A stretch of DNA of 64,000 nt from Macrostomum lignano (taxonomy: Eukaryota): NCBI GenBank assembly GCA_002269645.1, contig NIVC01000110.1, positions 496,001 through 560,000 on the forward strand, in the 5' to 3' direction. Each line of letters opens with the position of its first letter. Position 1 is the stretch's first letter. Shown here piece by piece: positions 21,805 through 44,118 of the stretch. The notes below the pieces were generated by a model. It saw nothing but the letters and a program-made list of their open reading frames with translations, did not search any database and had not been told where the DNA came from. The translations under genes were made by a program, and so were the position numbers.

Positions 21805-22112
21805 AGTAGTATATAAAAAGACGCTTCTAGACCCAGAGCACTTTTTTAACGACCGTTTTAAGGGTCCAGAGGGGGGACACGGGGGGTAAATAAAAAAACA
21901 CATCTAAACACCATTAACACATCTAATCACCCATAATCACCCCTAACAATAAAAATCACTTCCCAACACTTCCAAACACTCCCCAACACCCCCCTCGCGT
22001 CCCCCCTCTTAAGACCTTACAAACGGTCATTAAAATAAGGTCTGATCTAGAAGCGTCTTTTTCTATACTACTACTCTATAACCCCTTGCCCGCGCCGCAG
22101 GCGCGAAGGGTC
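21805..22112 (+). repeat. Left terminal inverted repeat (308 bp)
   Basis: Reverse complement of 44699-45006; I see two substitutions. Confidence 0.97.
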
Positions 22113-22129
22113 TTTTTCTGTTACTAAAA

Positions 22130-22427
22130 ATGACCCGAGTTTACACCTTTTGAGACTGTTGCTAAAAATGCAGAGATAATAAAACAACATATTTTGAATG
22201 GAATAATTGATGAAGTTTATTTAAAATATGACGACAAGCATGACCTAAAGCTTTATCCATTAGAGCTAGATGAGATGTATGATTTAGAACAAGAGGGTGA
22301 GTTAATATTTCAACTTGGAGATTATTTAAATTCGGATGATTGGGAGGTTAGATCAACAGATTCCGAATCAACAAATAGTTCATATGAAACCAGTGATTCA
22401 GAGAATGAAAGTGAAATTTTTATGTGA
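22130..22427 (+). CDS. Small acidic Polinton protein (probable frameshift near the start)
   Basis: Open frame 22134-22427 with a D/E/S-rich C-terminus; AAAAATG at 22130 is one base out of frame. Confidence 0.4.
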
Positions 22428-22443
22428 AAAAAATATTTAAAAA

Positions 22444-22668
22444 ATGAACTATTATTCTATAACAGAAACGACATTTATTGTGAAAAATATATATAAAAAA
22501 ATGAAGGTAAACTATTCCTACATCGGAAATGTGCCGATTAATGAACTTAATGAAAATTTAAGTTTGATAACACTTGAACAAATGTCAATAATAATATTAG
22601 TAACAATTATAGTAATAATATTGTTTTTGTTTGTTATAAAAAATTTACTACCATGTTGTCTTAAGTAA
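22444..22668 (+). CDS. 74-aa membrane protein
   Basis: AAAAATG start; C-terminal TM MSIIILVTIIVIILFLFVI. Confidence 0.6.
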   Translation: MNYYSITETTFIVKNIYKKMKVNYSYIGNVPINELNENLSLITLEQMSIIILVTIIVIILFLFVIKNLLPCCLK

Positions 22669-22678
22669 CTGTTTGAAC

Positions 22679-24288
22679 TTAGTTCGCAGACATTATCTGG
22701 TTCTCATAAAAAGAACCCAATATTTCTTCACCATCCTTATCAGCAATTATATAGGTTGTAGGGTTTGTATTTAAAACTTTACTGATGGTAAATTTCTCAC
22801 TTATTTTCCAATATCCTTTTCTTCCCTTTTCAAACTTATCTTTCCATTTATAGATATAAACAGAATCACCAACCTTAAAACCTTTAGTTTTCTTTTTTTC
22901 AAAATCTCCAAAAGTAACCCTAACGTTTTCAGGATTGTTATAAGCTTGTTGAGGAGTCATCTTTATCGCCGAATGATATGAATTATTATAATCTTTCACC
23001 ACGTCTGGTAATATTTTTACCCATTTTTGGTTACCATTAAGACTAAACTGAAACCACAATTTCTTACCTAAAGTTCTATTAAATCTTTCTATTAATGCGT
23101 TTTTACTCTCTCCATAAATAGAATAAATTTTATTAATATACTCCCCATTCGCGTCCTTTTTCCTTTCTTGTCCTTTTTCAAAATGATATAATTTATACAT
23201 ATGAGGATTGTAAAATTCTTTTCCTTCGTCAACACACAACCTTTCACTTTTTTCTCCAAGACTTCTAAAAGCAGCAGCAACACCCTCTCCCTTTTTGGAT
23301 TTTAAAGGAACAGCCCACGCGTATCGAGTAAAACCATCTAATATGGTTAAGATATATTTATATCCTCTTTCGTTCGGCATCGACATTAAATCAGCATACC
23401 AAATTTCATTCTTTTTGAAGTTCATGATTTTTCTATAAAATTTAGGTTTTCGATATTCTTTATGAAGAATCTTTGCCTCATCAGAACTTAACCCGCCGCC
23501 ACTTAACAACAAACACTCAACACAATTATTTCCATGTTGATTATAATTAATTCCTAAACCAAATTTAACTTTAGACTGCAAGATCTTTTTAACCATCCAC
23601 CTAGTTAATTTTTGACCTACCGATAATCCCTGCAAGTTATCTAATCCTTGAATCATTTTTTGATCGGCTTCATGTTTTAATCTTAATGCTTCCTCGGGTG
23701 TGTTCTTATCAGCATCTCTGTATGCTAAGTCATGATAGTATGCTAACCAATCAATTCCATTTATGGAATTGAATCGGCTTTTGGGGTGTCATCAGGATTT
23801 AATCTCAAATCTAAGCGAGTGCCGGGTAGTTTACCCTCAATCTTTCGAAAGAGGCTGGAGCACACCTTAAGCGGCGATAATTACCGCCCATCTCCGTCTG
23901 CTCTCTGAACCTTCTCCTTATATTTAAAATACTTAGGAGCTTGGCTGCGCATTGCCACCGTGTCTTCAAGCTTTTTACCTTTGGGAAGAGGAGTTACCTC
24001 TGTTCCTTCAAAAGATTTCTCAATTGAAGTGGTACTTGAAGCAGTATGACGGGTTTCACGCAATTTGGAGATGTCGCCACAAATAGTGACTAGCAAGGAC
24101 ATTGCCTTCCTCACTCAGGCCACGGGTTAACCTGTGAAGTTCATTGATGGTAAATGTAGTTCCCCAGTATACCTTCCAGTAGTAAAGATTGGTGGTAAGC
24201 TTGTTAATCCTTTTTGAACATCTAACAATCCTCCTTCAAACACTATTTGATCGTTCCGAAGGAACGCGAACTTCGTTCGGTTGCTCAT
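22679..24288 (-). CDS. int: Parvovirus-type phospholipase A2 (PLA2X) fused to a retroviral-like rve integrase; exon 1 24288-24130, exon 2 23826-22679, 1-nt deletion near 23763
   Basis: Spliced PLA2 reads GELHLPSMNFTG|PGTRLDLRL..IP[fs]INGIDWLAYYHDLAY..HEAD and runs without a stop into the integrase DDE core (WYADL, CVDEGKEF, IERFNRTL). Confidence 0.88.
23827..24129 (-). ncRNA. Group I intron, IC1-like, 303 nt, no internal endonuclease ORF
   Basis: P1 CAGGU/GCCUG with U.G at the 5' splice site; P3 CAUCUCC/GGAGAUG; P4 UGCGUG/UGCGCA; P5abc with A-rich bulge and GAAA loop; P7 G(A)GAGCA/UGCUCC; P8 GGCGGU/AUCGCC; P9 with GAAA loop. Removal restores G-P-G-T. Confidence 0.9.
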
Positions 24289-24838
24289 TTTTAATAGCCT
24301 TAAAAATACATGAAAGCACCAATTGTTTTGCAAACTCTTCAATGGTTGGTTGTTTAACTTTTTTATAGTTATTATCTACGCTAGTTAAGTATCTTTTATT
24401 TGTCCAATGTTCAGACTTTTTCATCTGATCTTCATCTTTGTAACTAAACGAAGAAGCGGGAATGAAATGATCAATATCTAACTTTCCAGTATAATCTTTT
24501 GATACATAATAATTTCTTGTGAAATTTAACCAATCAAAAAAGAATTCTTTTGTGCAACCAAGATATGAGATATAGTCCTTGTCATTAAAATTTTTCAACG
24601 CCCAATTTATTCTATTTCTAATTAAAACAATATGTTTGTAATTATCATCAGTGTGATACTTATTTTTTCTATATTCATTCCATTTATCTTTATTGTTTTT
24701 TATCCAAATAGCAGATGAGGTATTATGACAAGATCGACAATCATTTCTAAATTTTTTTGAATCATTTCTCCAAAAATAAAATTCTTTCGTCATCGGTTTT
24801 TCTTGTTTACACTTAGTACAAATCTTATTAGTTTCCAT
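24236..24838 (-). CDS. Free-standing HNH endonuclease with N-terminal CxxC..CxxC zinc finger (giant-virus-like type)
   Basis: CTKC...CRSC, YLGCTKE, DIDHFIP...HWTNKRYL...DNNYK. Confidence 0.75.
   Translation of the reverse strand: METNKICTKCKQEKPMTKEFYFWRNDSKKFRNDCRSCHNTSSAIWIKNNKDKWNEYRKNKYHTDDNYKHIVLIRNRINWALKNFNDKDYISYLGCTKEFFFDWLNFTRNYYVSKDYTGKLDIDHFIPASSFSYKDEDQMKKSEHWTNKRYLTSVDNNYKKVKQPTIEEFAKQLVLSCIFKAIKNEQPNEVRVPSERSNSV
24252..24279. repeat. Double-hairpin element
   Basis: CGTTCC-GAA-GGAACG CGAAC-TTC-GTTCG. Confidence 0.85.
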
Positions 24839-24861
24839 TTTATAAAAAATAAATTTAACAA

Positions 24862-25530
24862 TTAATTAAACACCAGTATGTCCAGCAGCTTTCGCGCAGC
24901 TAAAACAAGTTTTCTAGGAGTTTTAAATCCTTCTCCAACAGCCGGTTTGTTATTTATAGAATTAACAATCCTTTTATACAAGCTGGTATTTTTAACAGCT
25001 CCTCCTAACTCATCATAAAAAATTCTAGCACTTATTAATTCATCCCTAGTATATAAATCAGGGTTAAATTTTACCCTAGGGTTCATAACAATATTATATG
25101 CTCCACCCAATTCTCTATATAGTTCATTTCGATTTTTATCAACTCCACCAATTCGATAATTATTATTACCTAAATCTGTCGCAGCAATACTAGCTGGTAC
25201 TCTTGGATATTGTTCCCGATCGCCCCGCTCTGCACGTCTAATCTCTGCAATTCTCAATTGCGCTTGATCAACATCATAAGCAGGCGGCTCATCCAAAATT
25301 TCATCCTCTTTTGGCTCCGTATTTTTAGCAATTTTTTCCAGAAGATCTTTATCTGTTTTTTCTAGTTCACTTATTTTCCCAGTAATAGGATTAACAAAAG
25401 GAGCAGCAAATCTTTCACCCGCTAATTGTATTCCTAACTTTCTTTTTTGTAAATTTCTAACAAAATCAGAATATCTTTGCTTCTCTTTATAAATCGCTAA
25501 CTCTCCATCAACGTCCATAAATTGACTCAT
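24862..25530 (-). CDS. Polinton protein of unknown function, 222 aa
   Basis: AAAAATG start, FAAPFVNPITGKI segment, GEG|F motif near the C-terminus. Confidence 0.7.
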   Translation of the reverse strand: MSQFMDVDGELAIYKEKQRYSDFVRNLQKRKLGIQLAGERFAAPFVNPITGKISELEKTDKDLLEKIAKNTEPKEDEILDEPPAYDVDQAQLRIAEIRRAERGDREQYPRVPASIAATDLGNNNYRIGGVDKNRNELYRELGGAYNIVMNPRVKFNPDLYTRDELISARIFYDELGGAVKNTSLYKRIVNSINNKPAVGEGFKTPRKLVLAARKLLDILVFN

Positions 25531-25564
25531 TTTTTAACATAAAAAACTTTTTTAACTTAAAAAA

Positions 25565-27034
25565 ATGGCTGAAACAAAAACTATGTGGAGTGATAAATTT
25601 CATTTCAAAAAGCACCGACAGTATATTAATGAGGTCAGAGCAAAGATTTAAATTATACCCTACCAACAAGTGATAATTCAAATAACTTTACTACTGGAAC
25701 GGTAACTTTTGACATCGGCGCAACCAACACTATATTGGATATGAAAAATGCGTTTTTCCGCGTTAGATGGTTGTATACTAGAAATGATGGAACTGCTCTT
25801 GCAGCCGGAGATATCGCAGATCGATCCGGAATAATAATTGAAAATGATTGGTTTTATAAATGTTTTTCCCAAGCTCAACTAACTGTTAATGGTGCTGAGG
25901 TTGAGACATCATCAAACCCCGCAGAGATTAATGGAGTTTTGAAACATTTAAATTATACTTATTTATCAAAACAAGTTGGTGATAATGTTGGGTGGATGCC
26001 GGATAAAGGTAACGGTCAAGCAGTAGTTTTCCCTAATGTACAAAACGCAGCCGGTGCAGATACTGCAGCGCTAATTGTTTACCTTAATACAAACATAGTT
26101 CCAGTTGTAACCACTATGACTAATACAAAAGATATTAATACTGGTTTTATAGATCGTCAGAATAAATTCCCAGTCGCGGTTTTAACCACAGCAACAGCAT
26201 ATGAGCAGGACTTTTCAATCTTTCCACTATTTGGGTTTTTCTCACCAAATCGGGTATGGAAAGGATTAAAATTTGGGATACAGTTGCAAATATCTGGTGG
26301 ATATCAGCCTAGGATACTTTATGGAACCTCAATTTCAACCGATATAGCAGTTCGTATAGATTCAATTCAATTAGTCGTACCAACTATTGAGGTAACAGCC
26401 CCACTTTTAAAACACATCGATAATCAGTTAACGCATGATCAGGAAATATTTTATTTGAATCGTAGACACTTTATGCGAACCATTAATAACAATCAGGATT
26501 CATTCCAGTGGCAAATACTGACATCAAAACGTCGGGTGAGATATATTTTTGTTTGGTTTAAATAACAAATAGAAGGAGTAAAAGAGCAAATGGGGATTTA
26601 TATTGGCTTCAATCGGTGCCATAGCAGAACAAGCAGCCACCGCAACAGACAATGCGGCTGCAGCTATTAACGAGTTTAATGTTCAGAATATCCGCCTGCA
26701 GGTTGATGATCAATATTATCCGGTTAAAGATCCTCTTAATCTAAATATTGCAAATAATAATGTTAATGATTTTATAAAATATTATCAAGATTATGCTAAA
26801 AATGAAGCGTATGCCGTCCCTCAGTACACACCCACAGAGTTTCTAAACATTCATCCAGTGGTTGTTTATGATCTAACGGCACAGAAAGAAAACGTAGCCA
26901 ATATTGGACTTAATTATATGTTAGAGATTAATAAAACCGGTAATCAGGCACTTGACGCCCACGTATTGTTTCTAGAGGAATATATGTCAATTGCTAAAGC
27001 TGATGGCACGATTGTTCGGGACGCACCATTGTAA
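25565..27034 (+). CDS. Major capsid protein (double jelly roll), interrupted in the assembly near 25643 and 26563-26600
   Basis: RVRYIFVWF, NIRLQVDDQYYP, HPVVVYDLTAQKE match Polinton MCP motifs; position next to ATPase and penton. Confidence 0.85.
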
Positions 27035-27118
27035 AATGAGTGCAGTGCAAAGCACGTCGCACCACTTTAGTGTCGCAGGTCTCCGACCGTCGCGCCTATT
27101 TAAATTATTTCTTTAAAA

Positions 27119-27919
27119 ATGGTAAAGGCAAAACACGATAAGATATTTCCAAATGATCCTTTTCTTTGTTTAGTAATCGGAGGATCAGGTAAAGGAAAAA
27201 CACACTTTGTTTACGATTTATTAACAACAGATGGAATGTTAGACTATAATAATTTAATAATTTATACTAATAAACCTAGAATAAAATATTATGAATTTCT
27301 TAAACATGGATTAAAAAACAAATTAAAAAAAGATGTCTTGTTTAGAATGTTAAGAGCATATGAGCAATATGAGGATGATGACGAACCGCGATTTAATCTA
27401 GCAGACATTGAGGATTTATGTAAAACAATGGCACAACAGCCAGAAAACATCACCGATCGCCCCGAAGGGTCGCGGACTTCGTCCGATCGCGCCCCAACTG
27501 TTAGAGTATCAACCCGATTAGCCTATGATCAAATTCCAAAACATGATAAAACACTAATTATTTTTGATGATTGTATTAATGACGGTGATCAAGAATTACA
27601 AAAGGAAATTTTTGTTAGTGGTAGAGGAGATGGAATTGGAGCTTTTTATCTTACTCAATCCTTTAGAGAATTAGAATCGATTATAAAAAAGAATGCTAGC
27701 TGTTGTGTAATGTTTGATTTAGATAACTATGATCTACAAAATATTCACGCTAGATTTAATCCCGGATTGGATGCAAAACCACTTAAAAGTATGTGTAAAA
27801 AAATTTGGGATGATAGCCAACACAAACATATTTATATCAATCCGAGGTTAGAAAGGAAACATAGAATTTTAACAAATTTGATAAAAGAAGATAATGAGGA
27901 AGAAGAGGATCGTGCATAG
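27119..27919 (+). CDS. A32/FtsK-type packaging ATPase
   Basis: Walker A GGSGKGKT, Walker B LIIFDD, downstream SGRG..YLTQS. Confidence 0.92.
   Translation: MVKAKHDKIFPNDPFLCLVIGGSGKGKTHFVYDLLTTDGMLDYNNLIIYTNKPRIKYYEFLKHGLKNKLKKDVLFRMLRAYEQYEDDDEPRFNLADIEDLCKTMAQQPENITDRPEGSRTSSDRAPTVRVSTRLAYDQIPKHDKTLIIFDDCINDGDQELQKEIFVSGRGDGIGAFYLTQSFRELESIIKKNASCCVMFDLDNYDLQNIHARFNPGLDAKPLKSMCKKIWDDSQHKHIYINPRLERKHRILTNLIKEDNEEEEDRA
27458..27485. repeat. Double-hairpin element inside the ATPase ORF
   Basis: CGCCCC-GAA-GGGTCG CGGAC-TTC-GTCCG (one mismatch); CCGATCGC occurs at both ends. Confidence 0.8.
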
Positions 27920-27936
27920 CACGCGGACTTCGTCCG
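27911..27936. repeat. Double-hairpin element over the ATPase stop codon
   Basis: CGTGC-ATA-GCACG CGGAC-TTC-GTCCG. Confidence 0.85.
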
Positions 27937-27956
27937 GTTAATTTCCCACTATAAAA

Positions 27957-28742
27957 ATGACTACAAATTTAAATACTATAAAACAATTGGTAGATCGAAC
28001 TAATTCAAAATTTAGTACAACATTACAGTTTATAATGACAACCAGCGAGCAACGGATTCAATTGCGCGATCCATTACAACTTGATCAAAGCCTAAGTTAT
28101 CAAATAGGTTTAATTCTATTTTCGGTTTTCAACATGCCTCAATTAATTAATGCAACAAATAATCAATTTAGATATTCTAAAGATTCCGGAGCCAATTGGA
28201 CAACATTTAGCGTTAACCCAGGAGCGTATAGCTATACTGATTTGAATGCTTATATAGAAGGAGAATTAACAACTAATGGTGATTGGGTAGCAGGAGCAAT
28301 TGTTATAGGTGTTGATTTACCGTCTGGCAGATTCACACTATCACTAGGATCCGGATATCAGGTTGATTTCACAATTGCAAATTCACTCAGAACCATACTT
28401 GGATTTAATTCCCGAATAGTTACCACATCAAGCACCGGTGATACCGTGGGAAACATTGAGGGCGGAGTCAATACAATTAATATAACAACCGACATATCAA
28501 ACGGCGGTTATATAACAGATAATAATGGAGTTTTGGTTCAACGTGGAATTATTTATTCAATCCCATTTCTTGCTGTTCCAATTGGAGAGAAAATGATTGT
28601 TGCACCCCAAACCCCAATATATTATCCTTTAAATCAATATAGCGTTCAATCAATTTATATTAGGATTGTAGATGAAAGCGATAGATTAATAAGTTTTGGT
28701 GGGCAGTCAATAACAATAATTTTACGTATAAAACAGGTTTAA
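27957..28742 (+). CDS. Minor capsid protein (penton, single jelly roll)
   Basis: IQLRDPLQLD, PGAYSYTDLN, SLRTILGF, INITTDI, SIYIRIVDESDRLISFGGQSITIILRIK. Confidence 0.85.
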   Translation: MTTNLNTIKQLVDRTNSKFSTTLQFIMTTSEQRIQLRDPLQLDQSLSYQIGLILFSVFNMPQLINATNNQFRYSKDSGANWTTFSVNPGAYSYTDLNAYIEGELTTNGDWVAGAIVIGVDLPSGRFTLSLGSGYQVDFTIANSLRTILGFNSRIVTTSSTGDTVGNIEGGVNTINITTDISNGGYITDNNGVLVQRGIIYSIPFLAVPIGEKMIVAPQTPIYYPLNQYSVQSIYIRIVDESDRLISFGGQSITIILRIKQV

Positions 28743-28744
28743 TA

Positions 28745-28823
28745 GAACCGAAGGTTCGCGGACTTTGTCCGTTTCCTATAGTAAAAATGGGTAATCGAAC
28801 AACATGTTCGCGTGCAAAGCACG
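28745..28823. repeat. Two double-hairpin elements (28745-28771 and 28796-28823; copies at +5334)
   Basis: GAACC-GAA-GGTTC G CGGAC-TTT-GTCCG and CGAAC-AACAT-GTTCG CGTGC-AAA-GCACG. Confidence 0.8.
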
Positions 28824-28996
28824 ATAATAATAATAATTTAATAAAAAAACAATCAGAAAAAGTTAAAAAAGCTGAAGATAATTACGAACTAGAACTAGCA
28901 AAATTAAGGCAGTTACAAGCTGATAAAATAAGAAAGGAATTGTTAAAACCCACACCTACGAAACTAACTAAAACCAAGAGTTTTTCAGGAACATAA
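28787..28996 (+). CDS. 69-aa basic protein (copy 1)
   Basis: AAAAATG start, MGNRTT N-terminus, Lys-rich. Confidence 0.6.
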   Translation: MGNRTTCSRAKHDNNNNLIKKQSEKVKKAEDNYELELAKLRQLQADKIRKELLKPTPTKLTKTKSFSGT

Positions 28997-28997
28997 A

Positions 28998-29464
28998 ATG
29001 ACCATGACGTGGGATGATTTTAAACAAAGATATGGAACGGACACAACAAGCAATATCGAATTAACAAATTGGGCGAGGCAGTTAAAAATAAAACCATTCA
29101 GATGTGTTATGCGAGATGAGATCAAAGACTTACCACAATATGGATCTTTCATTGTTAATATTGAAACAACAAAAGAAAATGGTGTTCATTGGTCGGCAGT
29201 TTATTCCAAACCTAAACTTGTTTATTTTTTTGATTCATACGCGCTTCCTCCGTTACAGGAAATAAAAGACAAATTTAATCATACTAAAAATCGTTTATGT
29301 GGAGATCATCACGAACAGTTTCAAACATTTGATAAAAGTTATTGCGGGCAGGCTGCGTTATATTTTTTATATAAAATCGACGAAGTCCGCGAACCAAAGG
29401 TTCGATCAATAACTCGAAGGAAACCCCCGAAGACTTTAGGGCGATTTTAGACTCTATAAAATAG
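28998..29464 (+). CDS. Adenain-like cysteine protease (copy 1, 1-nt deletion at ~29379)
   Basis: HWSAVY, FFDSYA, QFQ, YCGQ give the His-Asp-Gln-Cys set. Confidence 0.88.
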
Positions 29465-29474
29465 ACAGTAAAAA

Positions 29475-31522
29475 ATGTTATTTTCTGGAACACCCTCATG
29501 GAACGGAACAACAAGTAGTGGCGGTGGTGGCACATCTGGTGGAATAAGTGTTACATTCGGAGATAATCGATATATTAATGAAGATGAAGGTTATAAAAAA
29601 AGTGAAGTTGATACTAAACTAAATTTAAAAAGAAACGTTGCAGATTCCTATACTAAAACTCAAATAGATGATTCACTAAATCTGAAACGGAACGTAGCGA
29701 TTCCTATACCAAAACCGAAGTTGATAATTCATTAAATTTAAAACGCAATACAGCCGATTCTTATGCCAAAACCGAAGTTGATAATTCATTAAATTTGAAA
29801 CGGAACGTAGCCGATTCTTATACCAAAACAGAGGTTGATAATTCATTAAATTTGAAACGGAACGTAGCCGATTCTTATACCAAAACCGAAGTTGATAATG
29901 GATTAAATTTAAAAAGAGATGTAACTGATTCTTATTCTCGAACTGATTCTGATTCACGTTATGTTCAAACCACCGCAACCGGAAACCTAGATATGAGCAA
30001 CAACCGAATTATAAATGTTTCAATTACAACTAGTGATTCAGTGGTTGATAAGAACTATGTCGATAATCAAGTTGCCACTCGTAGTGGAAATATTAATATG
30101 AATAATTTTAAATTAACAAATTTATTATTTGGAACAGATAACGCAGACTCGATAACTCTAGGCCAAGTAAATGAGCGAGCTAATGCAACCGACGCCGATA
30201 TTTTTACAACGCCGCTTACATCAAATACTTCAAATCCTGATGTTGTTCTTACAGCATCTGAAAATGGCAACACAGCTTTTCGAGTTGGAGATGGAAGCCT
30301 TGCGACACAATGGTCACCAAATACCGGAACCACAACCAATATGGAAATTCAATTTGAATTTTTAGGTTATAATAGAAGAATATTTGAATTAAGAATTACA
30401 GGCAGTGAAACAATTGAGATACCCTCGGGGTGGTCGGTTCGCGCAAAAAATGTTGCTACCGATTCATGGACGACATTAACTACGTCGGGATCACCAGTTC
30501 AAGCAACATCATTTGCTCTATCTAATTTAACGACTAATTTTTGGAAATATTATAGCGTATTCTTCCCAACTGGTGGTACCGGTACACAACCTATCGAGGT
30601 TCGTCAAATACAATTATTTGAACACCGTGTTGAAATTCAAGATCTTAATTGGCCAACTCAAATACTTTCTGCAGTTCCGCGAGCGTACGTAGATCAGCTA
30701 GCTACTCCAACATCAAATGGTAGAATGTCTGGAAGCGATAAAAATAAATTGGATGGAATACATGCTATTGATGCAGCCTTGTTCGAACCAGTAATTTGTA
30801 ATTGGTCTGGATATCAAAATCCAACAACCGCCGGAGATATATATCCAGTCGGTTCTTTAATTGGTGACGCTTCTTATATCGATTATCAAAATGGAGCTAG
30901 AATTACTCGTGAAACCGCAGGTGTAAGTGGGGCTTTACAATTTAATTTCACACATTTTCAAAATATATCTGCGTCTTTCTTTTTCCGAGTTGCTAATTCT
31001 ACAGGAGATGGTGCAGATGCGGTTTGGTTTTATGCATATTGTCACGAACGTCCAACATCGGAATTTGGAACTGGATTATCAACCGACGCCGGGCTGATAG
31101 TGTTTGCTAGTGAGTGGACTGATAGGTTTGGAGTTGTTTGGAGTAATAAAAAATCAGACGGATCTACGGTTCGTAACGATGTTAGTAGTGATGCGGATCA
31201 AACTGTAGCCTATGCTAATATTGATAACGGTGATTGGCATTTATTTGAAGTTAATATTTTAAATCAAAGGGTTTGGTACCGATTACAGTCATACAATGTT
31301 GCTGGTGATTCTTTTACCCTCATTGGACAGAACGTTTTCACATATGATAGTGGAACTTGGGGAACTTTAGATAAATCTGGAACCCTTATGGGTTTTGGTG
31401 CTCGAACTGGTGGAGCGGATGCTGCACATTTTATTCGTGGTGCAGTTGTATGTGGTAGTACGTCGTTTGGTTATGTTTTTCCCTCTACTGCTTATTTGGA
31501 AAAACCTCCTACTCAAATATAA
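29475..31522 (+). CDS. Fibre-like protein (copy 1, 1-nt deletion at ~29697)
   Basis: Same as 34810-36858 apart from the frameshift. Confidence 0.8.
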
Positions 31523-31553
31523 AATATTTATATATAAAATATTTATATATAAA

Positions 31554-31880
31554 ATGGCTTTTAGTAGAACTCCATCGATGCGGCAAAATAATGTTATTAT
31601 TCCTATTCCTAAACAAGAATCAAATATAAAAACATTCAAATCTCATACCAAATTTTTATTTAGTACTGTAAATGTTCAGGATAATAAGAAGCTTCAAGAA
31701 TTAATTAAATTATTAAAAAATCATATTATACTTCAAGAGTTTTGGAAAATAGGATTTAAATGGGAGAAAAAAGAAAGAATAACTCCAATACAATACCTAT
31801 TAAGCTCCGGGCAAATCCCCAAAGAGCGTGGGGAATTCATTTTGGTGCTATTAAAAATAGACGAGAATGTCGGTATCTGA
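31554..31880 (+). CDS. 108-aa protein of unknown function (copy 1)
   Basis: AAAATG start at 31554 within ORF 31395..31880. Confidence 0.55.
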   Translation: MAFSRTPSMRQNNVIIPIPKQESNIKTFKSHTKFLFSTVNVQDNKKLQELIKLLKNHIILQEFWKIGFKWEKKERITPIQYLLSSGQIPKERGEFILVLLKIDENVGI

Positions 31881-32523
31881 AGCAGATAAATGGGAACGCG
31901 ACCGGTTCAACCAACGTAAAGGTCAGATGTTGAGTAATGTTGATCGAATAAATTATGATTATGATTTATATGCTAAAAAAGTAAGAAGAGTTTCAAACCA
32001 TATAAGAAATATGGACTTTTTCAATATTGGATTTGGAAGCTTATCAATGTTATGTGTAATCGTTTTAGGTATTTTACAATCTATTCCAACTCTTAATTTA
32101 TCTCAATTATTTTTAGGTATTTCAATTGGCTCAATATCAGGTTTTGAATTGATCAGGAACTTATCAATACTTTTAGCAATTAAATTATATCTTAAAAAAA
32201 GAAAGGAAAAATATAAATCTTTAAGAGATGTTGCAAAACAATATAAAAATCAATTATATTTATATGTGCAAAAAATATTGGATGACGGAGAGATAACGAT
32301 TCATGAATTATCAACCGCGGTTGAATTATATGAAAAATATTTAAAAGATAGAAATAGAATTTTAGATGTTGAAACTTTTACCGATATGGAATTAAAAGAG
32401 TTGAGACTCGATAAACCCAAAGCTCCACCGATAGAAACATTAGGCATTTACGAACCTGAAACTATTGCTACTGGGGCACAAAGCCCGCGATCAGGAAGTG
32501 CTGTAGAACTTCAGGTTGTTTAG
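31867..32523 (+). CDS. 218-aa protein with two predicted TM segments (copy 1)
   Basis: Hydrophobic FFNIGFGSLSMLCVIVLGIL and LFLGISIGSISGFELIRNLSILLAI, then KILDDGEITIHE. Confidence 0.7.
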   Translation: MSVSEADKWERDRFNQRKGQMLSNVDRINYDYDLYAKKVRRVSNHIRNMDFFNIGFGSLSMLCVIVLGILQSIPTLNLSQLFLGISIGSISGFELIRNLSILLAIKLYLKKRKEKYKSLRDVAKQYKNQLYLYVQKILDDGEITIHELSTAVELYEKYLKDRNRILDVETFTDMELKELRLDKPKAPPIETLGIYEPETIATGAQSPRSGSAVELQVV

Positions 32524-33003
32524 TTTTTCTAATGCATATGTTATATATTCTTCCCAAAGTGGTAACTCTCTTCTGATCCTAGGTTTAAATTTTTTATCAA
32601 TACATAAAAATTCCAATGACTTTTTCAATAACATTTCGTTAGGTATGTTACCAATCCTTATAAACTTTGTATTCTCTCGCATAAGAAAATTGAAATAATA
32701 TCCAACTAAAATTAAAATCCTTTCGGAGTCTTTCGAACTTAATCCCTTTCCTTTATTTAAATGGAAAAAGTTATTATATAAATAAACATTATTTCCGGGA
32801 ATTAAAATTGGATCAGAAATGTCTCTTGTAAGATTTCTTAAAATTGTGTTTTTAAAATAGTAATATGAGTTTTCAATCTTTTTTGTTTTTTCAAATTGAT
32901 ATATTTTAGAACATGAATAACACATATGATATATATCTCCGTTTGCTGTTTGCCCTCTGTGCATAGTCACGTTACATTTATTACAAACATAAATGTCTTT
33001 CAT
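32491..33003 (-). CDS. 170-aa protein with N-terminal CxxC..CxxC zinc ribbon (copy 1)
   Basis: CNKC...CYSC. Confidence 0.65.
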   Translation of the reverse strand: MKDIYVCNKCNVTMHRGQTANGDIYHMCYSCSKIYQFEKTKKIENSYYYFKNTILRNLTRDISDPILIPGNNVYLYNNFFHLNKGKGLSSKDSERILILVGYYFNFLMRENTKFIRIGNIPNEMLLKKSLEFLCIDKKFKPRIRRELPLWEEYITYALEKLNNLKFYSTS

Positions 33004-33029
33004 TTTTTTGTTATTTTTTTAGATTAAAA

Positions 33030-33362
33030 ATGGAGAGCTGGTTCAAAACCGATTCTAATGTGATTAATTATCTCACACCCAATATGTTGGAGAATAAAGA
33101 ATATAATATTATATGTTTGAGACAGGTTAAATTTATTGGGCTTCAATCAATATTTTTACAATTAGATGGGCAAAAAATTTTATGTCTAAGCGGAGATGAT
33201 GTTAAAAATTTTCCTGTTTTAGTTATTAATAAACCTAAAGCGTTTGTTATGAAATACTGCAACGAGGGTGGATTGCAATTTAAACTAAAACAAACAAATA
33301 ATAAAAAGAGTGATAGGACTGTAAAATTGGCGGCTGTTTGGGAGGATGACGACGAAGACTAA
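33030..33362 (+). CDS. 110-aa protein of unknown function (copy 1)
   Basis: AAAAATG start; intact in both copies. Confidence 0.6.
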   Translation: MESWFKTDSNVINYLTPNMLENKEYNIICLRQVKFIGLQSIFLQLDGQKILCLSGDDVKNFPVLVINKPKAFVMKYCNEGGLQFKLKQTNNKKSDRTVKLAAVWEDDDED

Positions 33363-33377
33363 ATTTTTTATAAGAAA

Positions 33378-33737
33378 ATGGATACGATAAAAATCCTTAT
33401 CACTAAAGAGCGTGAACTTAATGATATTAATAAAAAAATAAATATAATTATATCTCAGAAATATCATGAGTATGGGGACGATATGTTTCCCATCCGATAT
33501 GAGATAGATAAAAGAAAACGTTTTTTAAGACAAGATATTGTTTATGCTGAAATAGTAATTGAAATTGAAATAGATAGATTGGTTAGAAAAATAAAAAAAC
33601 TTAGGAAAAAAATAAAGGATTGTTTAAGTTACCCTGCCGACTGTGAGGATAATTGGTGCTCAATAATATATGAAATTGAAGTTAATGATTTGCTCAAACA
33701 ATTACATGCTTTAGTTTTTTACAGACCCGATAAGTAA
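33378..33737 (+). CDS. 119-aa coiled-coil-like protein (copy 1)
   Basis: AAAATG start; intact in both copies. Confidence 0.6.
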   Translation: MDTIKILITKERELNDINKKINIIISQKYHEYGDDMFPIRYEIDKRKRFLRQDIVYAEIVIEIEIDRLVRKIKKLRKKIKDCLSYPADCEDNWCSIIYEIEVNDLLKQLHALVFYRPDK

Positions 33738-34076
33738 TTTAATTCCCGAATAGTTACCACATCAAGCACCGGTGATACCGTGGGAAACATTGAGGGCGGA
33801 GTCAATACAATTAATATAACAACCGACATATCAAACGGCGGTTATATAACAGATAATAATGGAGTTTTGGTTCAACGTGGAATTATTTATTCAATCCCAT
33901 TTCTTGCTGTTCCAATTGGAGAGAAAATGATTGTTGCACCCCAAACCCCAATATATTATCCTTTAAATCAATATAGCGTTCAATCAATTTATATTAGGAT
34001 TGTAGATGAAAGCGATAGATTAATAAGTTTTGGTGGGCAGTCAATAACAATAATTTTACGTATAAAACAGGTTTAA
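33737..34076 (+). pseudogene. 3' fragment of the penton gene created by the duplication
   Basis: Identical to 28403-28742; no N-terminus. Confidence 0.9.
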
Positions 34077-34120
34077 TAGAACCGAAGGTTCGCGGACTTT
34101 GTCCGTTTCCTATAGTAAAA

Positions 34121-34330
34121 ATGGGTAATCGAACAACATGTTCGCGTGCAAAGCACGATAATAATAATAATTTAATAAAAAAACAATCAGAAAAAGTTAA
34201 AAAAGCTGAAGATAATTACGAACTAGAACTAGCAAAATTAAGGCAGTTACAAGCTGATAAAATAAGAAAGGAATTGTTAAAACCCACACCTACGAAACTA
34301 ACTAAAACCAAGAGTTTTTCAGGAACATAA
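34121..34330 (+). CDS. 69-aa basic protein (copy 2)
   Basis: Identical to 28787-28996. Confidence 0.6.
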   Translation: MGNRTTCSRAKHDNNNNLIKKQSEKVKKAEDNYELELAKLRQLQADKIRKELLKPTPTKLTKTKSFSGT

Positions 34331-34331
34331 A

Positions 34332-34799
34332 ATGACCATGACGTGGGATGATTTTAAACAAAGATATGGAACGGACACAACAAGCAATATCGAATTAACA
34401 AATTGGGCGAGGCAGTTAAAAATAAAACCATTCAGATGTGTTATGCGAGATGAGATCAAAGACTTACCACAATATGGATCTTTCATTGTTAATATTGAAA
34501 CAACAAAAGAAAATGGTGTTCATTGGTCGGCAGTTTATTCCAAACCTAAACTTGTTTATTTTTTTGATTCATACGCGCTTCCTCCGTTACAGGAAATAAA
34601 AGACAAATTTAATCATACTAAAAATCGTTTATGTGGAGATCATCACGAACAGTTTCAAACATTTGATAAAAGTTATTGCGGGCAGGCTGCGTTATATTTT
34701 TTATATAAAATCGGACGAAGTCCGCGAACCAAAGGTTCGATCAATAACTCGAAGGAAACCCCCGAAGACTTTAGGGCGATTTTAGACTCTATAAAATAG
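34332..34799 (+). CDS. Adenain-like cysteine protease (copy 2, intact, 155 aa)
   Basis: His-Asp-Gln-Cys motifs as in copy 1. Confidence 0.9.
   Translation: MTMTWDDFKQRYGTDTTSNIELTNWARQLKIKPFRCVMRDEIKDLPQYGSFIVNIETTKENGVHWSAVYSKPKLVYFFDSYALPPLQEIKDKFNHTKNRLCGDHHEQFQTFDKSYCGQAALYFLYKIGRSPRTKGSINNSKETPEDFRAILDSIK
34712..34739. repeat. Double-hairpin element inside the protease ORF (copy 1 at 29378-29404)
   Basis: CGGAC-GAA-GTCCG CGAACC-AAA-GGTTCG, with ATC on both sides. Confidence 0.85.
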
Positions 34800-34809
34800 A
34801 CAGTAAAAA

Positions 34810-36858
34810 ATGTTATTTTCTGGAACACCCTCATGGAACGGAACAACAAGTAGTGGCGGTGGTGGCACATCTGGTGGAATAAGTGTTACCTTCGGAGATA
34901 ATCGATATATTAATGAAGATGAAGGTTATAAAAAAAGTGAAGTTGATACTAAACTAAATTTAAAAAGAAACGTTGCAGATTCCTATACTAAAACTCAAAT
35001 AGATGATTCACTAAATCTGAAACGGAACGTAGTCGATTCCTATACCAAAACCGAAGTTGATAATTCATTAAATTTAAAACGCAATACAGCCGATTCTTAT
35101 GCCAAAACCGAAGTTGATAATTCATTAAATTTGAAACGGAACGTAGCCGATTCTTATACCAAAACAGAGGTTGATAATTCATTAAATTTGAAACGGAACG
35201 TAGCCGATTCTTATACCAAAACCGAAGTTGATAATGGATTAAATTTAAAAAGAGATGTAACTGATTCTTATTCTCGAACTGATTCTGATTCACGTTATGT
35301 TCAAACCACCGCAACCGGAAACCTAGATATGAGCAACAACCGAATTATAAATGTTTCAATTACAACTAGTGATTCAGTGGTTGATAAGAACTATGTCGAT
35401 AATCAAGTTGCCACTCGTAGTGGAAATATTAATATGAATAATTTTAAATTAACAAATTTATTATTTGGAACAGATAACGCAGACTCGATAACTCTAGGCC
35501 AAGTAAATGAGCGAGCTAATGCAACCGACGCCGATATTTTTACAACGCCGCTTACATCAAATACTTCAAATCCTGATGTTGTTCTTACAGCATCTGAAAA
35601 TGGCAACACAGCTTTTCGAGTTGGAGATGGAAGCCTTGCGACACAATGGTCACCAAATACCGGAACCACAACCAATATGGAAATTCAATTTGAATTTTTA
35701 GGTTATAATAGAAGAATATTTGAATTAAGAATTACAGGCAGTGAAACAATTGAGATACCCTCGGGGTGGTCGGTTCGCGCAAAAAATGTTGCTACCGATT
35801 CATGGACGACATTAACTACGTCGGGATCACCAGTTCAAGCAACATCATTTGCTCTATCTAATTTAACGACTAATTTTTGGAAATATTATAGCGTATTCTT
35901 CCCAACTGGTGGTACCGGTACACAACCTATCGAGGTTCGTCAAATACAATTATTTGAACACCGTGTTGAAATTCAAGATCTTAATTGGCCAACTCAAATA
36001 CTTTCTGCAGTTCCGCGAGCGTACGTAGATCAGCTAGCTACTCCAACATCAAATGGTAGAATGTCTGGAAGCGATAAAAATAAATTGGATGGAATACATG
36101 CTATTGATGCAGCCTTGTTCGAACCAGTAATTTGTAATTGGTCTGGATATCAAAATCCAACAACCGCCGGAGATATATATCCAGTCGGTTCTTTAATTGG
36201 TGACGCTTCTTATATCGATTATCAAAATGGAGCTAGAATTACTCGTGAAACCGCAGGTGTAAGTGGGGCTTTACAATTTAATTTCACACATTTTCAAAAT
36301 ATATCTGCGTCTTTCTTTTTCCGAGTTGCTAATTCTACAGGAGATGGTGCAGATGCGGTTTGGTTTTATGCATATTGTCACGAACGTCCAACATCGGAAT
36401 TTGGAACTGGATTATCAACCGACGCCGGGCTGATAGTGTTTGCTAGTGAGTGGACTGATAGGTTTGGAGTTGTTTGGAGTAATAAAAAATCAGACGGATC
36501 TACGGTTCGTAACGATGTTAGTAGTGATGCGGATCAAACTGTAGCCTATGCTAATATTGATAACGGTGATTGGCATTTATTTGAAGTTAATATTTTAAAT
36601 CAAAGGGTTTGGTACCGATTACAGTCATACAATGTTGCTGGTGATTCTTTTACCCTCATTGGACAGAACGTTTTCACATATGATAGTGGAACTTGGGGAA
36701 CTTTAGATAAATCTGGAACCCTTATGGGTTTTGGTGCTCGAACTGGTGGAGCGGATGCTGCACATTTTATTCGTGGTGCAGTTGTATGTGGTAGTACGTC
36801 GTTTGGTTATGTTTTTCCCTCTACTGCTTATTTGGAAAAACCTCCTACTCAAATATAA
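34810..36858 (+). CDS. Fibre/adhesin-like protein, 682 aa: 19-aa shaft repeats, F5/8-type-C-like domain, C-terminal L-type (ConA-like) lectin domain (copy 2, intact)
   Basis: (KRNVADSYTKTEVDNSLNL)n, LDMSNNRIINV, KNYVD, RMSGSDKNKLDGI; AFRVGDGSLATQWS; LIGDASY..FQNISASFFFRV..GADAVWF. Confidence 0.8.
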   Translation: MLFSGTPSWNGTTSSGGGGTSGGISVTFGDNRYINEDEGYKKSEVDTKLNLKRNVADSYTKTQIDDSLNLKRNVVDSYTKTEVDNSLNLKRNTADSYAKTEVDNSLNLKRNVADSYTKTEVDNSLNLKRNVADSYTKTEVDNGLNLKRDVTDSYSRTDSDSRYVQTTATGNLDMSNNRIINVSITTSDSVVDKNYVDNQVATRSGNINMNNFKLTNLLFGTDNADSITLGQVNERANATDADIFTTPLTSNTSNPDVVLTASENGNTAFRVGDGSLATQWSPNTGTTTNMEIQFEFLGYNRRIFELRITGSETIEIPSGWSVRAKNVATDSWTTLTTSGSPVQATSFALSNLTTNFWKYYSVFFPTGGTGTQPIEVRQIQLFEHRVEIQDLNWPTQILSAVPRAYVDQLATPTSNGRMSGSDKNKLDGIHAIDAALFEPVICNWSGYQNPTTAGDIYPVGSLIGDASYIDYQNGARITRETAGVSGALQFNFTHFQNISASFFFRVANSTGDGADAVWFYAYCHERPTSEFGTGLSTDAGLIVFASEWTDRFGVVWSNKKSDGSTVRNDVSSDADQTVAYANIDNGDWHLFEVNILNQRVWYRLQSYNVAGDSFTLIGQNVFTYDSGTWGTLDKSGTLMGFGARTGGADAAHFIRGAVVCGSTSFGYVFPSTAYLEKPPTQI

Positions 36859-36889
36859 AATATTTATATATAAAATATTTATATATAAA

Positions 36890-37215
36890 ATGGCTTTTAG
36901 TAGAACTCCATCGATGCGGCAAAATAATGTTATTATTCCTATTCCTAAACAAGAATCAAATATAAAAACATTCAAATCTCATACCAAATTTTTATTTAGT
37001 ACTGTAAATGTTCAGGATAATAAGAAGCTTCAAGAATTAATTAAATTATTAAAAAATCATATTATACTTCAAGAGTTTTGGAAAATAGGATTTAAATGGG
37101 AGAAAAAAGAAAGAATAACTCCAATACAATACCTATTAAGCTCCGGGCAAATCCCAAAGAGCGTGGGGAATTCATTTTGGTGCTATTAAAAATAGACGAG
37201 AATGTCGGTATCTGA
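36890..37215 (+). CDS. 108-aa protein (copy 2, 1-nt deletion at ~37153)
   Basis: ATCCCAAAG versus ATCCCCAAAG in copy 1. Confidence 0.5.
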
Positions 37216-37858
37216 AGCAGATAAATGGGAACGCGACCGGTTCAACCAACGTAAAGGTCAGATGTTGAGTAATGTTGATCGAATAAATTATGATTATGAT
37301 TTATATGCTAAAAAAGTAAGAAGAGTTTCAAACCATATAAGAAATATGGACTTTTTCAATATTGGATTTGGAAGCTTATCAATGTTATGTGTAATCGTTT
37401 TAGGTATTTTACAATCTATTCCAACTCTTAATTTATCTCAATTATTTTTAGGTATTTCAATTGGCTCAATATCAGGTTTTGAATTGATCAGGAACTTATC
37501 AATACTTTTAGCAATTAAATTATATCTTAAAAAAAGAAAGGAAAAATATAAATCTTTAAGAGATGTTGCAAAACAATATAAAAATCAATTATATTTATAT
37601 GTGCAAAAAATATTGGATGACGGAGAGATAACGATTCATGAATTATCAACCGCGGTTGAATTATATGAAAAATATTTAAAAGATAGAAATAGAATTTTAG
37701 ATGTTGAAACTTTTACCGATATGGAATTAAAAGAGTTGAGACTCGATAAACCCAAAGCTCCACCGATAGAAACATTAGGCATTTACGAACCTGAAACTAT
37801 TGCTACTGGGGCACAAAGCCCGCGATCAGGAAGTGCTGTAGAACTTCAGGTTGTTTAG
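37202..37858 (+). CDS. 218-aa two-TM protein (copy 2)
   Basis: Identical to copy 1. Confidence 0.7.
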   Translation: MSVSEADKWERDRFNQRKGQMLSNVDRINYDYDLYAKKVRRVSNHIRNMDFFNIGFGSLSMLCVIVLGILQSIPTLNLSQLFLGISIGSISGFELIRNLSILLAIKLYLKKRKEKYKSLRDVAKQYKNQLYLYVQKILDDGEITIHELSTAVELYEKYLKDRNRILDVETFTDMELKELRLDKPKAPPIETLGIYEPETIATGAQSPRSGSAVELQVV

Positions 37859-38337
37859 TTTTTCTAATGCATATGTTATATATTCTTCCCAAAGTGGTAA
37901 CTCTCTTCTGATCCTAGGTTTAAATTTTTTATCAATACATAAAAATTCCAATGACTTTTTCAATAACATTTCGTTAGGTATGTTACCATCCTTATAAACT
38001 TTGTATTCTCTCGCATAAGAAAATTGAAATAATATCCAACTAAAATTAAAATCCTTTCGGAGTCTTTCGAACTTAATCCCTTTCCTTTATTTAAATGGAA
38101 AAAGTTATTATATAAATAAACATTATTTCCGGGAATTAAAATTGGATCAGAAATGTCTCTTGTAAGATTTCTTAAAATTGTGTTTTTAAAATAGTAATAT
38201 GAGTTTTCAATCTTTTTTGTTTTTTCAAATTGATATATTTTAGAACATGAATAACACATATGATATATATCTCCGTTTGCTGTTTGCCCTCTGTGCATAG
38301 TCACGTTACATTTATTACAAACATAAATGTCTTTCAT
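37826..38337 (-). CDS. Zinc-ribbon protein (copy 2, 1-nt deletion at ~37987)
   Basis: TACCATCC versus TACCAATCC in copy 1. Confidence 0.6.
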
Positions 38338-38363
38338 TTTTTTGTTATTTTTTTAGATTAAAA

Positions 38364-38696
38364 ATGGAGAGCTGGTTCAAAACCGATTCTAATGTGATTA
38401 ATTATCTCACACCCAATATGTTGGAGAATAAAGAATATAATATTATATGTTTGAGACAGGTTAAATTTATTGGGCTTCAATCAATATTTTTACAATTAGA
38501 TGGGCAAAAAATTTTATGTCTAAGCGGAGATGATGTTAAAAATTTTCCTGTTTTAGTTATTAATAAACCTAAAGCGTTTGTTATGAAATACTGCAACGAG
38601 GGTGGATTGCAATTTAAACTAAAACAAACAAATAATAAAAAGAGTGATAGGACTGTAAAATTGGCGGCTGTTTGGGAGGATGACGACGAAGACTAA
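38364..38696 (+). CDS. 110-aa protein (copy 2)
   Basis: Identical to copy 1. Confidence 0.6.
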   Translation: MESWFKTDSNVINYLTPNMLENKEYNIICLRQVKFIGLQSIFLQLDGQKILCLSGDDVKNFPVLVINKPKAFVMKYCNEGGLQFKLKQTNNKKSDRTVKLAAVWEDDDED

Positions 38697-38711
38697 ATTT
38701 TTTATAAGAAA

Positions 38712-39071
38712 ATGGATACGATAAAAATCCTTATCACTAAAGAGCGTGAACTTAATGATATTAATAAAAAAATAAATATAATTATATCTCAGAAATATCA
38801 TGAGTATGGGGACGATATGTTTCCCATCCGATATGAGATAGATAAAAGAAAACGTTTTTTAAGACAAGATATTGTTTATGCTGAAATAGTAATTGAAATT
38901 GAAATAGATAGATTGGTTAGAAAAATAAAAAAACTTAGGAAAAAAATAAAGGATTGTTTAAGTTACCCTGCCGACTGTGAGGATAATTGGTGCTCAATAA
39001 TATATGAAATTGAAGTTAATGATTTGCTCAAACAATTACATGCTTTAGTTTTTTACAGACCCGATAAGTAA
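38712..39071 (+). CDS. 119-aa protein (copy 2)
   Basis: Identical to copy 1. Confidence 0.6.
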   Translation: MDTIKILITKERELNDINKKINIIISQKYHEYGDDMFPIRYEIDKRKRFLRQDIVYAEIVIEIEIDRLVRKIKKLRKKIKDCLSYPADCEDNWCSIIYEIEVNDLLKQLHALVFYRPDK

Positions 39072-42000: not shown

Positions 42001-43039
42001 AACAATTTCTACATAGTGGATATCTATTTCTATTTTCTCTTAAAAAAGAACTAATATCTTTTATGTATATATAATGTGTTTCATTTTCGCGCTGCATGTA
42101 CAAAAGATCGATTTGATCTGGTGCTGTTATATCAGTTGCTGGCTTAACAAGATAACAGTTTTTCTTATACCATTCTGGATCGGTTAAAATTTCTTCTAGA
42201 TCTTTTGGTTCTTCAATTGTAAACACATTAATATTTAAACCATTCATTTTTTCAATCTTATATATATCATCTATTGCTACTGGGTATGATATGTTTTTCA
42301 TTATTATTTCATCCTCATATTGTCTATAATTATATATTTTATTAATGTGTGATTCTACTTGATTGTGATATTTATGAATTAATAAACACCATAATAAACA
42401 TTTATTATCTTTATTGTCTGGATTTATAATCATAGGTGATTTAAATTTGAGCTTCATATGTGATCGTCCTTTAAGAATTTCTATAGGTGCAATCTTTACT
42501 ATTGCTGAATTACAGGATACAAATATAAACCCAGATCCGTTTTCTGTCATCTTATCTATCCATTCATCAAACTCAGCTTCTATTTGATCGAATTGATTGT
42601 TGTAATTTCCCATTGATAATAATGTTTTATATGATTCTTGTGAAAAGTTATTTATTACTTCAATTTCTGAATTTGCATTAAGAATATTTGGTTTTTTAAA
42701 TTCTGTTTCAACTTCTATTTTATACTTAATTGGCTGTCGTTTGTTATTTGGCCTTATAGTATAATTGTTTAATATAGTCTTTAATTTATCTTTCATTTGT
42801 TTAAAATATTCTTTATAATTTGTATTTATATCTATATCTATATATATTACTTCAGCTCCATTTTGTCCTTGTGGTTGGGGGTTATTAATATCATTTAATT
42901 GTCTTTCTAAACGTATCTCATTTTCTGCCCTAATTCTTGCTTCTATTTCAGCCCTATCGGCAATTCGTTGTGCATCGATTTGAGCTATTAATTGTGCTCT
43001 AAGTTCAGGGTTGTCGATTTGAGCTAAAATTGCTTCCAT
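39045..43039 (-). CDS. polB: Protein-primed family B DNA polymerase (~1330 aa) with an endonuclease VII-like insert; 1-nt deletion at ~41010
   Basis: ExoI IYADFEA, ExoII FHNGSGYD, ExoIII YLKADV; YLDANNLYG, KLMNNAFYGKT, YADTDS; CFMC..REHCHLTGNYRGAACRSCN. The two track ORFs join through frame PIEKFYSTLSQTNISESDYEHAQKVW. Confidence 0.95.
39755..39782. repeat. Double-hairpin element inside polB
   Basis: CGAACC-TTT-GGTTCG CGGAC-TCC-GTCCG. Confidence 0.85.
41758..41785. repeat. Double-hairpin element inside polB
   Basis: CGTCCC-GTA-GGGTCG CATGC-TTT-GCATG (one mismatch). Confidence 0.75.
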
Positions 43040-43123
43040 TTTATAGAATAAAATTTATATAATGTTTGAATTATTGATTTTTTAATTTTGTGTTTTTGGT
43101 GTCCAGACCCTCCCCCCAGGAGC

Positions 43124-44108: not shown

Positions 44109-44118
44109 TTTTATATTG

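Follow-up and report, generated by a model that had tools for sequence, protein, structure and literature searches.

Group I introns and two alternating putative nuclease genes at a PLA2-integrase gene, and GGNCC depletion, in Polintons of Macrostomum lignano

Collaborative homing is known in phages, where free-standing homing endonucleases next to group I introns without an open reading frame (ORF) cut intron-minus alleles and spread both elements; described examples are F-CphI beside the psbA intron of cyanophage S-PM2 and those of T3/T7-like phages (PMC6083498, PMC3984707, PMC10448857). Here we analyse a stretch of 64,000 nucleotides (nt) of Macrostomum lignano (the window: GenBank assembly GCA_002269645.1, contig NIVC01000110.1, positions 496,001 to 560,000 of the forward strand), in which a Polinton carries a PLA2-integrase gene that is split by a group I intron devoid of an ORF and adjoined by a probable nuclease gene. 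The original prediction, made from the sequence alone, held that this nuclease, taken to be an HNH enzyme, and the intron form a partnership of the phage kind among Polinton copies within one nucleus. The general notion of a free-standing nuclease that would act on the intron-minus site of an adjoining ORF-less intron is well supported, and phage-style intron homing appears to operate among these Polintons, but the best-supported partner of the intron is a different, Eco47II-like enzyme, whose gene takes the same slot in other copies. The window protein resembles F-CphI in that the latter is described as having an Endo VII motif and the former matches a PHROG family named 'endonuclease VII'. 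Unlike the phage cases, the present one concerns a eukaryotic virus integrated into an animal genome; a single slot is filled by one or the other of two unrelated nucleases, linkage of nuclease and intron is mostly absent, and the Eco47II-like enzyme is of a short-site restriction family whose specificity apparently comes from a genome purge and not from a long site.

Several other systems are close in part. Nuclear group I introns have been described as restricted to the rRNA genes of eukaryotic microorganisms, and their IC1/IE representatives share the core structure of the introns reported here (PMC3679873), which, in contrast, split a protein-coding gene of an element in an animal nuclear assembly. 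Protist polinton-like viruses (PLVs) have RF00028 introns of ~300 nt in integrated genes, as well as free-standing HNH and GIY-YIG genes; however, as far as the main account goes, these introns are confined to a few protist groups and to a short gene upstream of the capsid gene, and it describes neither a linked nuclease nor site avoidance (PMC12220804). A restriction fold of the PD-(D/E)XK type serves for homing in I-Ssp6803I (PF11645), whose site is 17 bp long (PMC3424549), whereas the Polinton protein matches RE_Eco47II/EcoO109I and the purge concerns GGNCC in all contexts. With Eco47II (PF09553), EcoO109I and AvaII the Polinton enzyme shares the fold, the catalytic motif and the sequence that is depleted, but it is shorter (167 amino acids, aa), lies in an intron or a swap slot and has no adjacent methylase that we could see. 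Elsewhere, the only mention of collaborative homing, in the portions available, concerns helicases of entomopoxviruses (PMC11296320), and PLA2X genes occur in animal adintoviruses (PMC8502044). Within the literature covered, which included few subscription papers and no supplements (Tables S11-S12 of PMC12220804, for example, fell outside it), we came across no account that describes group I introns in animal Polintons, an Eco47II-like homing gene, or the coupling of site purging to intron immunity.

The interrupted gene lies on the minus strand. Exon 1 (24130..24288) has 53 codons, the last of which encodes Gly, and contains a 33-nt insert near its start; it is followed by the intron (23827..24129, minus strand, 303 nt), designated type A, and by exon 2 (22679..23826, minus strand), in which the remaining PLA2 domain is in frame with an rve integrase. 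The exon 2 frame of the window copy is broken near 23764, where most copies are open. Natural intronless alleles set the splice sites at 24130|24129 and 23827|23826, and the intron scores 62.1 bits against Rfam RF00028 (gathering cut-off 50; E 9e-14). It has no ORF of at least 60 aa, only a 52-aa frame and a 77-aa frame with a GTG start, the latter being the ribozyme core read as codons. Intronless copies have a single frame of 423-452 aa with Phospholip_A2_4 and rve domains, so that the host gene, which had been called PLA2, is in fact a PLA2-integrase fusion; such fusions are common among its relatives. Within the PLA2 domain, the insertion point separates the codons for Gly and Pro (GGN|CCN) in the conserved GPG loop, a loop found in 34 of 120 relatives, many of which have no PLA2 part. 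The intronless junction encodes Gly-Pro as GGN CCN in 12 of 14 intronless places, L162 and L159 being the two others.

The same site holds a further, separate group I intron, designated type B (~325 nt; 64% identity with type A), in L109:1510-1835 and in 22 other places of the window element's family (family 1); its match to RF00028 reaches 34.2 bits (E 4e-7), below the cut-off. The P1 helix at the 5' splice site reads CAGGU/GCCUG in type A and CGGGU/GCCCG in type B, the U.G pair being present in both; P1 and P7 covary between the two types, and P7 occurs in four covarying versions. The window intron has the P7 G-C pair and, presumably as in IC1 introns, a P5abc-like extension. It departs from what is near-universal in group I introns in its last base, which is A (23827) in the window and in 68 of 93 type A haplotypes, the P7 G-binding pair being unchanged; a terminal G is found in the other 25 haplotypes, in type B, in a second Polinton family (family 2) and in the metagenome contig L181. 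The PLA2 part of exon 2 has a ratio of nonsynonymous to synonymous substitution rates (dN/dS) of 0.06 among terminal-A copies, the same as among terminal-G copies. Together with the hexacoral mitochondrial intron ND5-717, which likewise has no terminal G and splices in vivo (PMC6545197), this conservation makes splicing plausible. Four contig runs over 23300-24900 gave no joint across the intron, a result that speaks neither for nor against splicing because rare forms are lost from contigs, and none of the listed source records for the sequence is of RNA origin. Between families 1 and 2 the intron is 81-88% identical, versus 62-67% for the exons (one pair compared).

Some observations on the split gene stand apart. 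Beside type B, the start of exon 2 would encode Gly-Ala-Gly-Leu, not Gly-Pro-Gly, and in many copies the conserved aromatic residue of the PLA2 loop (window 24130-24144) is Met or His. L164:950-1133 holds a 5' fragment of exon 1 with an intron, upstream of a complete intronless PLA2-integrase gene. In L131:690-1850 a type B intron bears an unrelated insert of ~840 nt; considered as a second endonuclease carrier, it was rejected, as the insert has no nuclease match and looks like unrelated DNA.

Exon 1 forms one border of a nuclease slot whose other border is a conserved upstream gene of unknown family (24862..25530, minus strand). Slot content was classified in 168 distinct places (180 loci less 12 duplicates), drawn from genome searches in which 150 of 467, 123 of 1626, 150 of 715 and 28 of 29353 candidates were scored; the family-2 places were chosen partly via intron hits. 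In family 1 the slot holds the HNH-like gene in 100 places and an Eco47II-like gene in 36, with four places having neither or being incomplete, and the swap is clean, two unrelated genes being exchanged between shared borders. The HNH-like gene goes with intron A in 81 places, with intron B in 16 and with no intron in three, whereas the free-standing Eco47II-like gene goes with A in 29 places and with B in seven. Family 2, whose integrase is ~60% identical to that of family 1 and whose Eco47II-like gene is ~60-66% identical, carries this gene inside the homologous type A intron in 16 of 17 intron-bearing places (one is unplaced), and its 11 intronless places all have no nuclease. Both nuclease genes are optional genes between conserved genes or inside the intron, the latter location being putative for relatives of the HNH-like gene.

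In family 1 the intron occurs in 97 of 100 places with the HNH gene and in all 36 with the Eco47II-like one. Overall, what the slot holds does not depend on which intron type is present (Fisher p 0.78) in 115 haplotypes, a set from which 13 of the 136 family-1 places are absent as unsegmented and in which eight identical ones are merged. Taken literally, the expectation that the HNH gene and the intron would occur together has failed: the intron is equally common without the HNH gene, whose presence does not explain it. In two of the three intronless HNH places (L100 and L139) the HNH gene is open and retains its motif, next to an intact intronless junction, although flanking variants might still protect them. 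For the Eco47II-like gene the picture differs, as it was never found with an unprotected site: none of 53 carriers is intronless, versus 14 of 113 non-carriers (p 0.005, a value that overstates the case because the copies are related; the incomplete L098 and L099 are omitted from this test). Among six further Eco places none is intronless (three are without context), and 15 further places added no intronless copy.

The Eco47II-like protein (167 aa) is unrelated to the HNH-like one. It belongs to the Eco47II family by its PD-(D/E)XK fold and by Pfam RE_Eco47II (PF09553), which is above cut-off in two of the four proteins tested. Its best fold match is EcoO109I (Z 9.8, rmsd 3.7, 166 of 167 residues; the next row has Z 7.4), Foldseek with the model gave EcoO109I at E 3e-4 and AvaII at E 1e-3, and its Atlas neighbours are RE_Eco47II and RE_EcoO109I proteins. 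EcoO109I recognises RGGNCCY and AvaII GGWCC. Eco47II homologues are reported to cut GGNCC (PMC10305163). Purifying selection is seen in both locations (dN/dS 0.26 for free and 0.32 for intronic genes), and the motif is intact in 16 of 17 open free copies. L181 has the same intron, with an Eco47II-like ORF inside it, at the same PLA2 site of a PLA2-integrase, and ten further database relatives read on into the intron core. In a midpoint-rooted tree the free-standing clade is placed among relatives that read through into the intron, which hints that the free gene escaped from the intron, a direction that midpoint rooting does not fix; rooting on proteins P0295-7 proved invalid, these being HNH-family proteins picked up via a shared intron tail. 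Scans of IMG/VR with the Eco protein, its alignment, the PLA2-integrase and P0001 found no relatives. Sequence searches of the PDB gave nothing useful.

GGNCC is also the sequence that is nearly missing from these elements. The window element has one site where 27.1 are expected in 23.2 kb, located in just one of its two terminal inverted repeats (TIRs), and this depletion ranks second of 680 patterns, its ratio being far below that of any other top row; the host flanks are unpurged (37 versus 50.3 expected). Its ORFs contain no GGNCC, versus 18.5 expected under codon shuffling and 7.4 under synonymous permutation (0 of 300 permutations as low), and no Gly-Pro, versus 10.8 expected. Two family-2 elements have 1 and 0 sites versus 15.8 and 17.1 expected. 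Pooled over 15 element stretches (137,462 nt), five sites are found versus 158.6 expected, and four of the five are intronless junctions. The stretch from slot to integrase has no site in any of the 112 intron-bearing haplotypes and exactly one in each of the three intronless ones. Apart from the junction, families 1 and 2 are thus purged of nearly all GGNCC, and the elements tested of all Gly-Pro. It should be noted that the pooled count leaves aside L194-L201, degenerate places of a third family, and nine stretches mixed with host-like or inserted DNA (sites: L182 5, L183 18, L185 46, L190 4, L191 22, L202 7, L206 8, L207 4 and L210 4). A third-family fragment taken as control is unpurged (17 versus 8.0 expected); the control is limited to this fragment because a PF04665 search of the genome found no other Polinton families at E 0.001.

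In the standard code Gly-Pro is always GGNCC, so that the site at the junction cannot be removed by a silent change. We consider it likely that the Eco47II-like enzyme cuts GGNCC, that the intron confers immunity and that homing ensues, the whole forming one conflict system together with the slot and the base composition of the elements. In purged genomes the sole target of the enzyme would be the intronless junction; an intron would make the DNA immune while splicing restored Gly-Pro, and cut rivals would be either destroyed or repaired from an intron-bearing copy, that is, by homing. The HNH-like gene would be a second, unrelated homing nuclease competing for the same slot, probably cutting or nicking near the junction with a longer, allele-specific recognition, and its carriers would still need the intron as a shield from the GGNCC cutter. 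We lean, with less assurance, towards the bolder proposal that a short-site restriction enzyme became a single-site homing and exclusion nuclease through a genome-wide purge and not through a longer recognition site, with the intron hiding the one site that cannot be recoded and two unrelated nucleases entering, leaving and competing for that intron. The arena is probably viral replication, in genomes replicating in a co-infected or co-activated cell as opposed to resting integrated copies, because a short-site cutter would also hit host DNA, which is harmless only when host damage is irrelevant. A transposon that only rests would have little use for a GGNCC cutter, so that the presence of one would be indirect evidence that these Polintons replicate and fight as viruses.

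Several points weigh against this account. A five-base cutter expressed from resting copies would be lethal to host chromatin, and no methylase was found among the 24 window frames, the Eco-bearing copies not having been searched for one. Splicing is uncertain for the majority of type A haplotypes, 68 of 93, whose last base is A although P7 retains its G-binding pair. The intronless family-2 junction of L162 is not GGNCC, and that of L159 gave no clear reading. Among the nuclease-free elements, L183 and L185 each hold three GGNCC in the capsid region, and the intronless family-2 elements L184, L186, L187 and L193 are largely purged too, which fits pressure from neighbours but equally an outside source. 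The control is one degenerate 4.9-kb fragment, with eight of its 17 sites in one repeat-rich frame. Slot content and intron type are unlinked overall, so for the most part the nuclease and the intron move separately. Finally, changes on the integrase tree (slot 16, intron state 15, terminal base 13) are fewer than the shuffled means (24, 21 and 22), so vertical descent matters too, although they are far from single events.

The HNH-like gene itself (24236..24838, minus strand) is real as the original prediction had it: it encodes 200 aa, is co-oriented with the split gene, overlaps exon 1 by 53 nt and ends 106 nt from the insertion site of an intron that RF00028 and the intronless alleles confirm. 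The overlap includes the 33-nt insert and is 20 nt in copies without it. The protein has 132 matches in the genome and 3671 matching representatives. Its HNH label holds in part: a Pfam scan of the window protein makes no HNH call and PF01844 hits five of 125 aligned members, but the motif D123-H124..N147..N156 and two N-terminal CxxC pairs are conserved across the 125 sequences, and PHROG 1035 ('endonuclease VII') covers residues 5-164 (E 3e-8). The predicted structure (pLDDT 92) has the strand-strand-helix order of a His-Me finger (E120-124, E148-152, H153-159), and the top Foldseek rows are Cas9 HNH domains, at weak values (E 0.1-0.3; VIA Z at most 5.4). The protein is thus probably a nuclease of the His-Me (DH-N-N) type, the motif being retained in 60 of 61 open copies (dN/dS 0.56).

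Read strictly, the original proposal makes this enzyme the one that cleaves the intron-minus junction, with the intron as the block to cutting and both elements carried along; we give it a little less than an even chance, and such a role is compatible with the GGNCC model. Four of 297 proteins (P0006 and P0295-P0297), 35-38% identical to the window protein, have C-terminal tails that are translated intron core (66-69% identity) and, by analogy with the Eco ORFs, would be intron-borne HNH relatives; they are known here as proteins alone, and 14 IMG/VR loci with more distant relatives have no Rfam RNA. One HNH class is found with intron B in nine of nine copies, spread over differing flanking backgrounds, and on the upstream-gene tree this pairing shows eight state changes, with 6.3 independent pairs of the same sign and none of the opposite one (median p 0.03). 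The integrase tree gives no more than four pairs (p 0.125), and the Eco47II-like gene has no link with intron B. The association of HNH class with the flanking haplotype peaks at the insertion site (0.34-0.44, versus 0.04-0.21 beside the gene), a weak sign given that low variation in the middle of exon 1 depresses the score in that part and that clonality raises it. Linkage of intron B to exon sequence extends no further than the closest 15-30 nt (r2 1.0, dropping to 0.04 in exon 2 beyond 30 nt), which may reflect short conversion tracts centred on the site, or may come from ordinary recombination. The three intronless HNH places and the equal frequency of the intron without the HNH gene speak against the HNH enzyme as carrier of the intron; as a second partner it has the four intron-core relatives and the intron B class in its favour and the intronless places against it.

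A possible, though less favoured, explanation is that the HNH-like gene is an independent homing nuclease of the intronless kind, which would target the flanks of copies with the other slot content and be shielded by sequence variation rather than by the intron. The clean swap between shared borders fits this, as do HNH alleles that range from 100% down to ~52% identity while the integrase stays above 90%, the variability of the N-terminal 100 residues (the most variable part of the protein), the intronless carriers and a diversity that peaks over the final 40 nt of exon 1, as though evading a nuclease. However, slot content shows no strong linkage to any flanking site (r2 0.30 or less), and the candidate intron-borne HNH relatives point to the intron site.

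It is unlikely that GGNCC was purged from outside, by a co-infecting giant virus or an earlier host enzyme, with the intron as shield and the Eco47II-like gene as a captured passenger. Among the Atlas neighbours, one cluster of RE_Eco47II proteins is 96% viral, most commonly Nucleocytoviricota, and the purge of nuclease-free family-2 elements is as expected from such a source, but purifying selection acts on the gene, its motif is maintained, and it lies within the same intron that interrupts the site and does not accompany an intronless junction in any place. That the pattern is a fossil shuffled by ordinary recombination, most introns (those with terminal A) no longer splicing and both nucleases being inactive today, is equally improbable: the frequent terminal A and the lack of a full open frame in 27 of 88 copies of the HNH gene and, for the Eco gene, in 10 of 27 free and 11 of 17 intronic ones would fit, but many identical or near-identical copies have open frames, exon 2 is conserved in terminal-A copies (a signal that recombination could import), and ND5-717 splices without a terminal G (PMC6545197).

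If the GGNCC model is true, group I introns reside in a protein-coding gene of integrated elements of an animal nucleus, in well over a hundred copies, and site purging plus intron immunity is a new route to homing specificity. Two nucleases that are, at a single site, free-standing, carried by an intron or missing would then make up a natural series, with which the proposed derivation of mobile introns from collaborative homing, as well as the opposite path, could be tested directly, and the A-ending introns would be a large natural set for testing 3' splice-site rules.

The window element (21805..45006, no strand assigned) is a Polinton/Maverick with 308-nt TIRs, a 6-bp target-site duplication and, by Pfam, an rve integrase, a double jelly-roll capsid fragment and an A32 ATPase; its polymerase has no Pfam hit for pPolB and is recognised by a YADTD motif alone. 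Its insertion point is at the margin of a frame for reverse transcriptase (RVT_1; 20577-21803, minus strand). That the host is an animal is borne out by Wnt (PF00110), which has 86 matches in the genome, some on contigs that also hold element copies (e.g., C506 and C952). The capsid gene (25735-27034, plus strand) is in two frames with a gap, here and in most fetched copies. The polymerase (39045-43039, minus strand), also in two frames in the window copy, carries an Endonuclease_7 domain, comparable to the HNH insert in pPolB2 of nematodes and oomycetes; for nematode polymerases such an insert has been described (10.1101/2023.08.22.554363). A block of ~5 kb is duplicated in tandem (28998-33737 and 34332-39071) and contains a protease-like gene, a fibre-like gene with a 57-nt repeat and three small ORFs. 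Short palindromic inserts of ~30-35 nt (24250-24284, ~27470, 27920, 28755, 34090, 39766 and others; 11 hits of the motif, counting both strands) are dispersed over genes, spacers and the P5 region of the intron, as in the 333-nt intron of L061, often without breaking frames. In family 2 (L182:469-594, L184:390-515, L188:471-650) the start of the PLA2 gene recurs inverted at the far end of the element, so that the terminal repeat seems to take in exon 1, and L161:951-1628 contains a Prim-Pol-like ORF upstream of an intronless family-2 gene.

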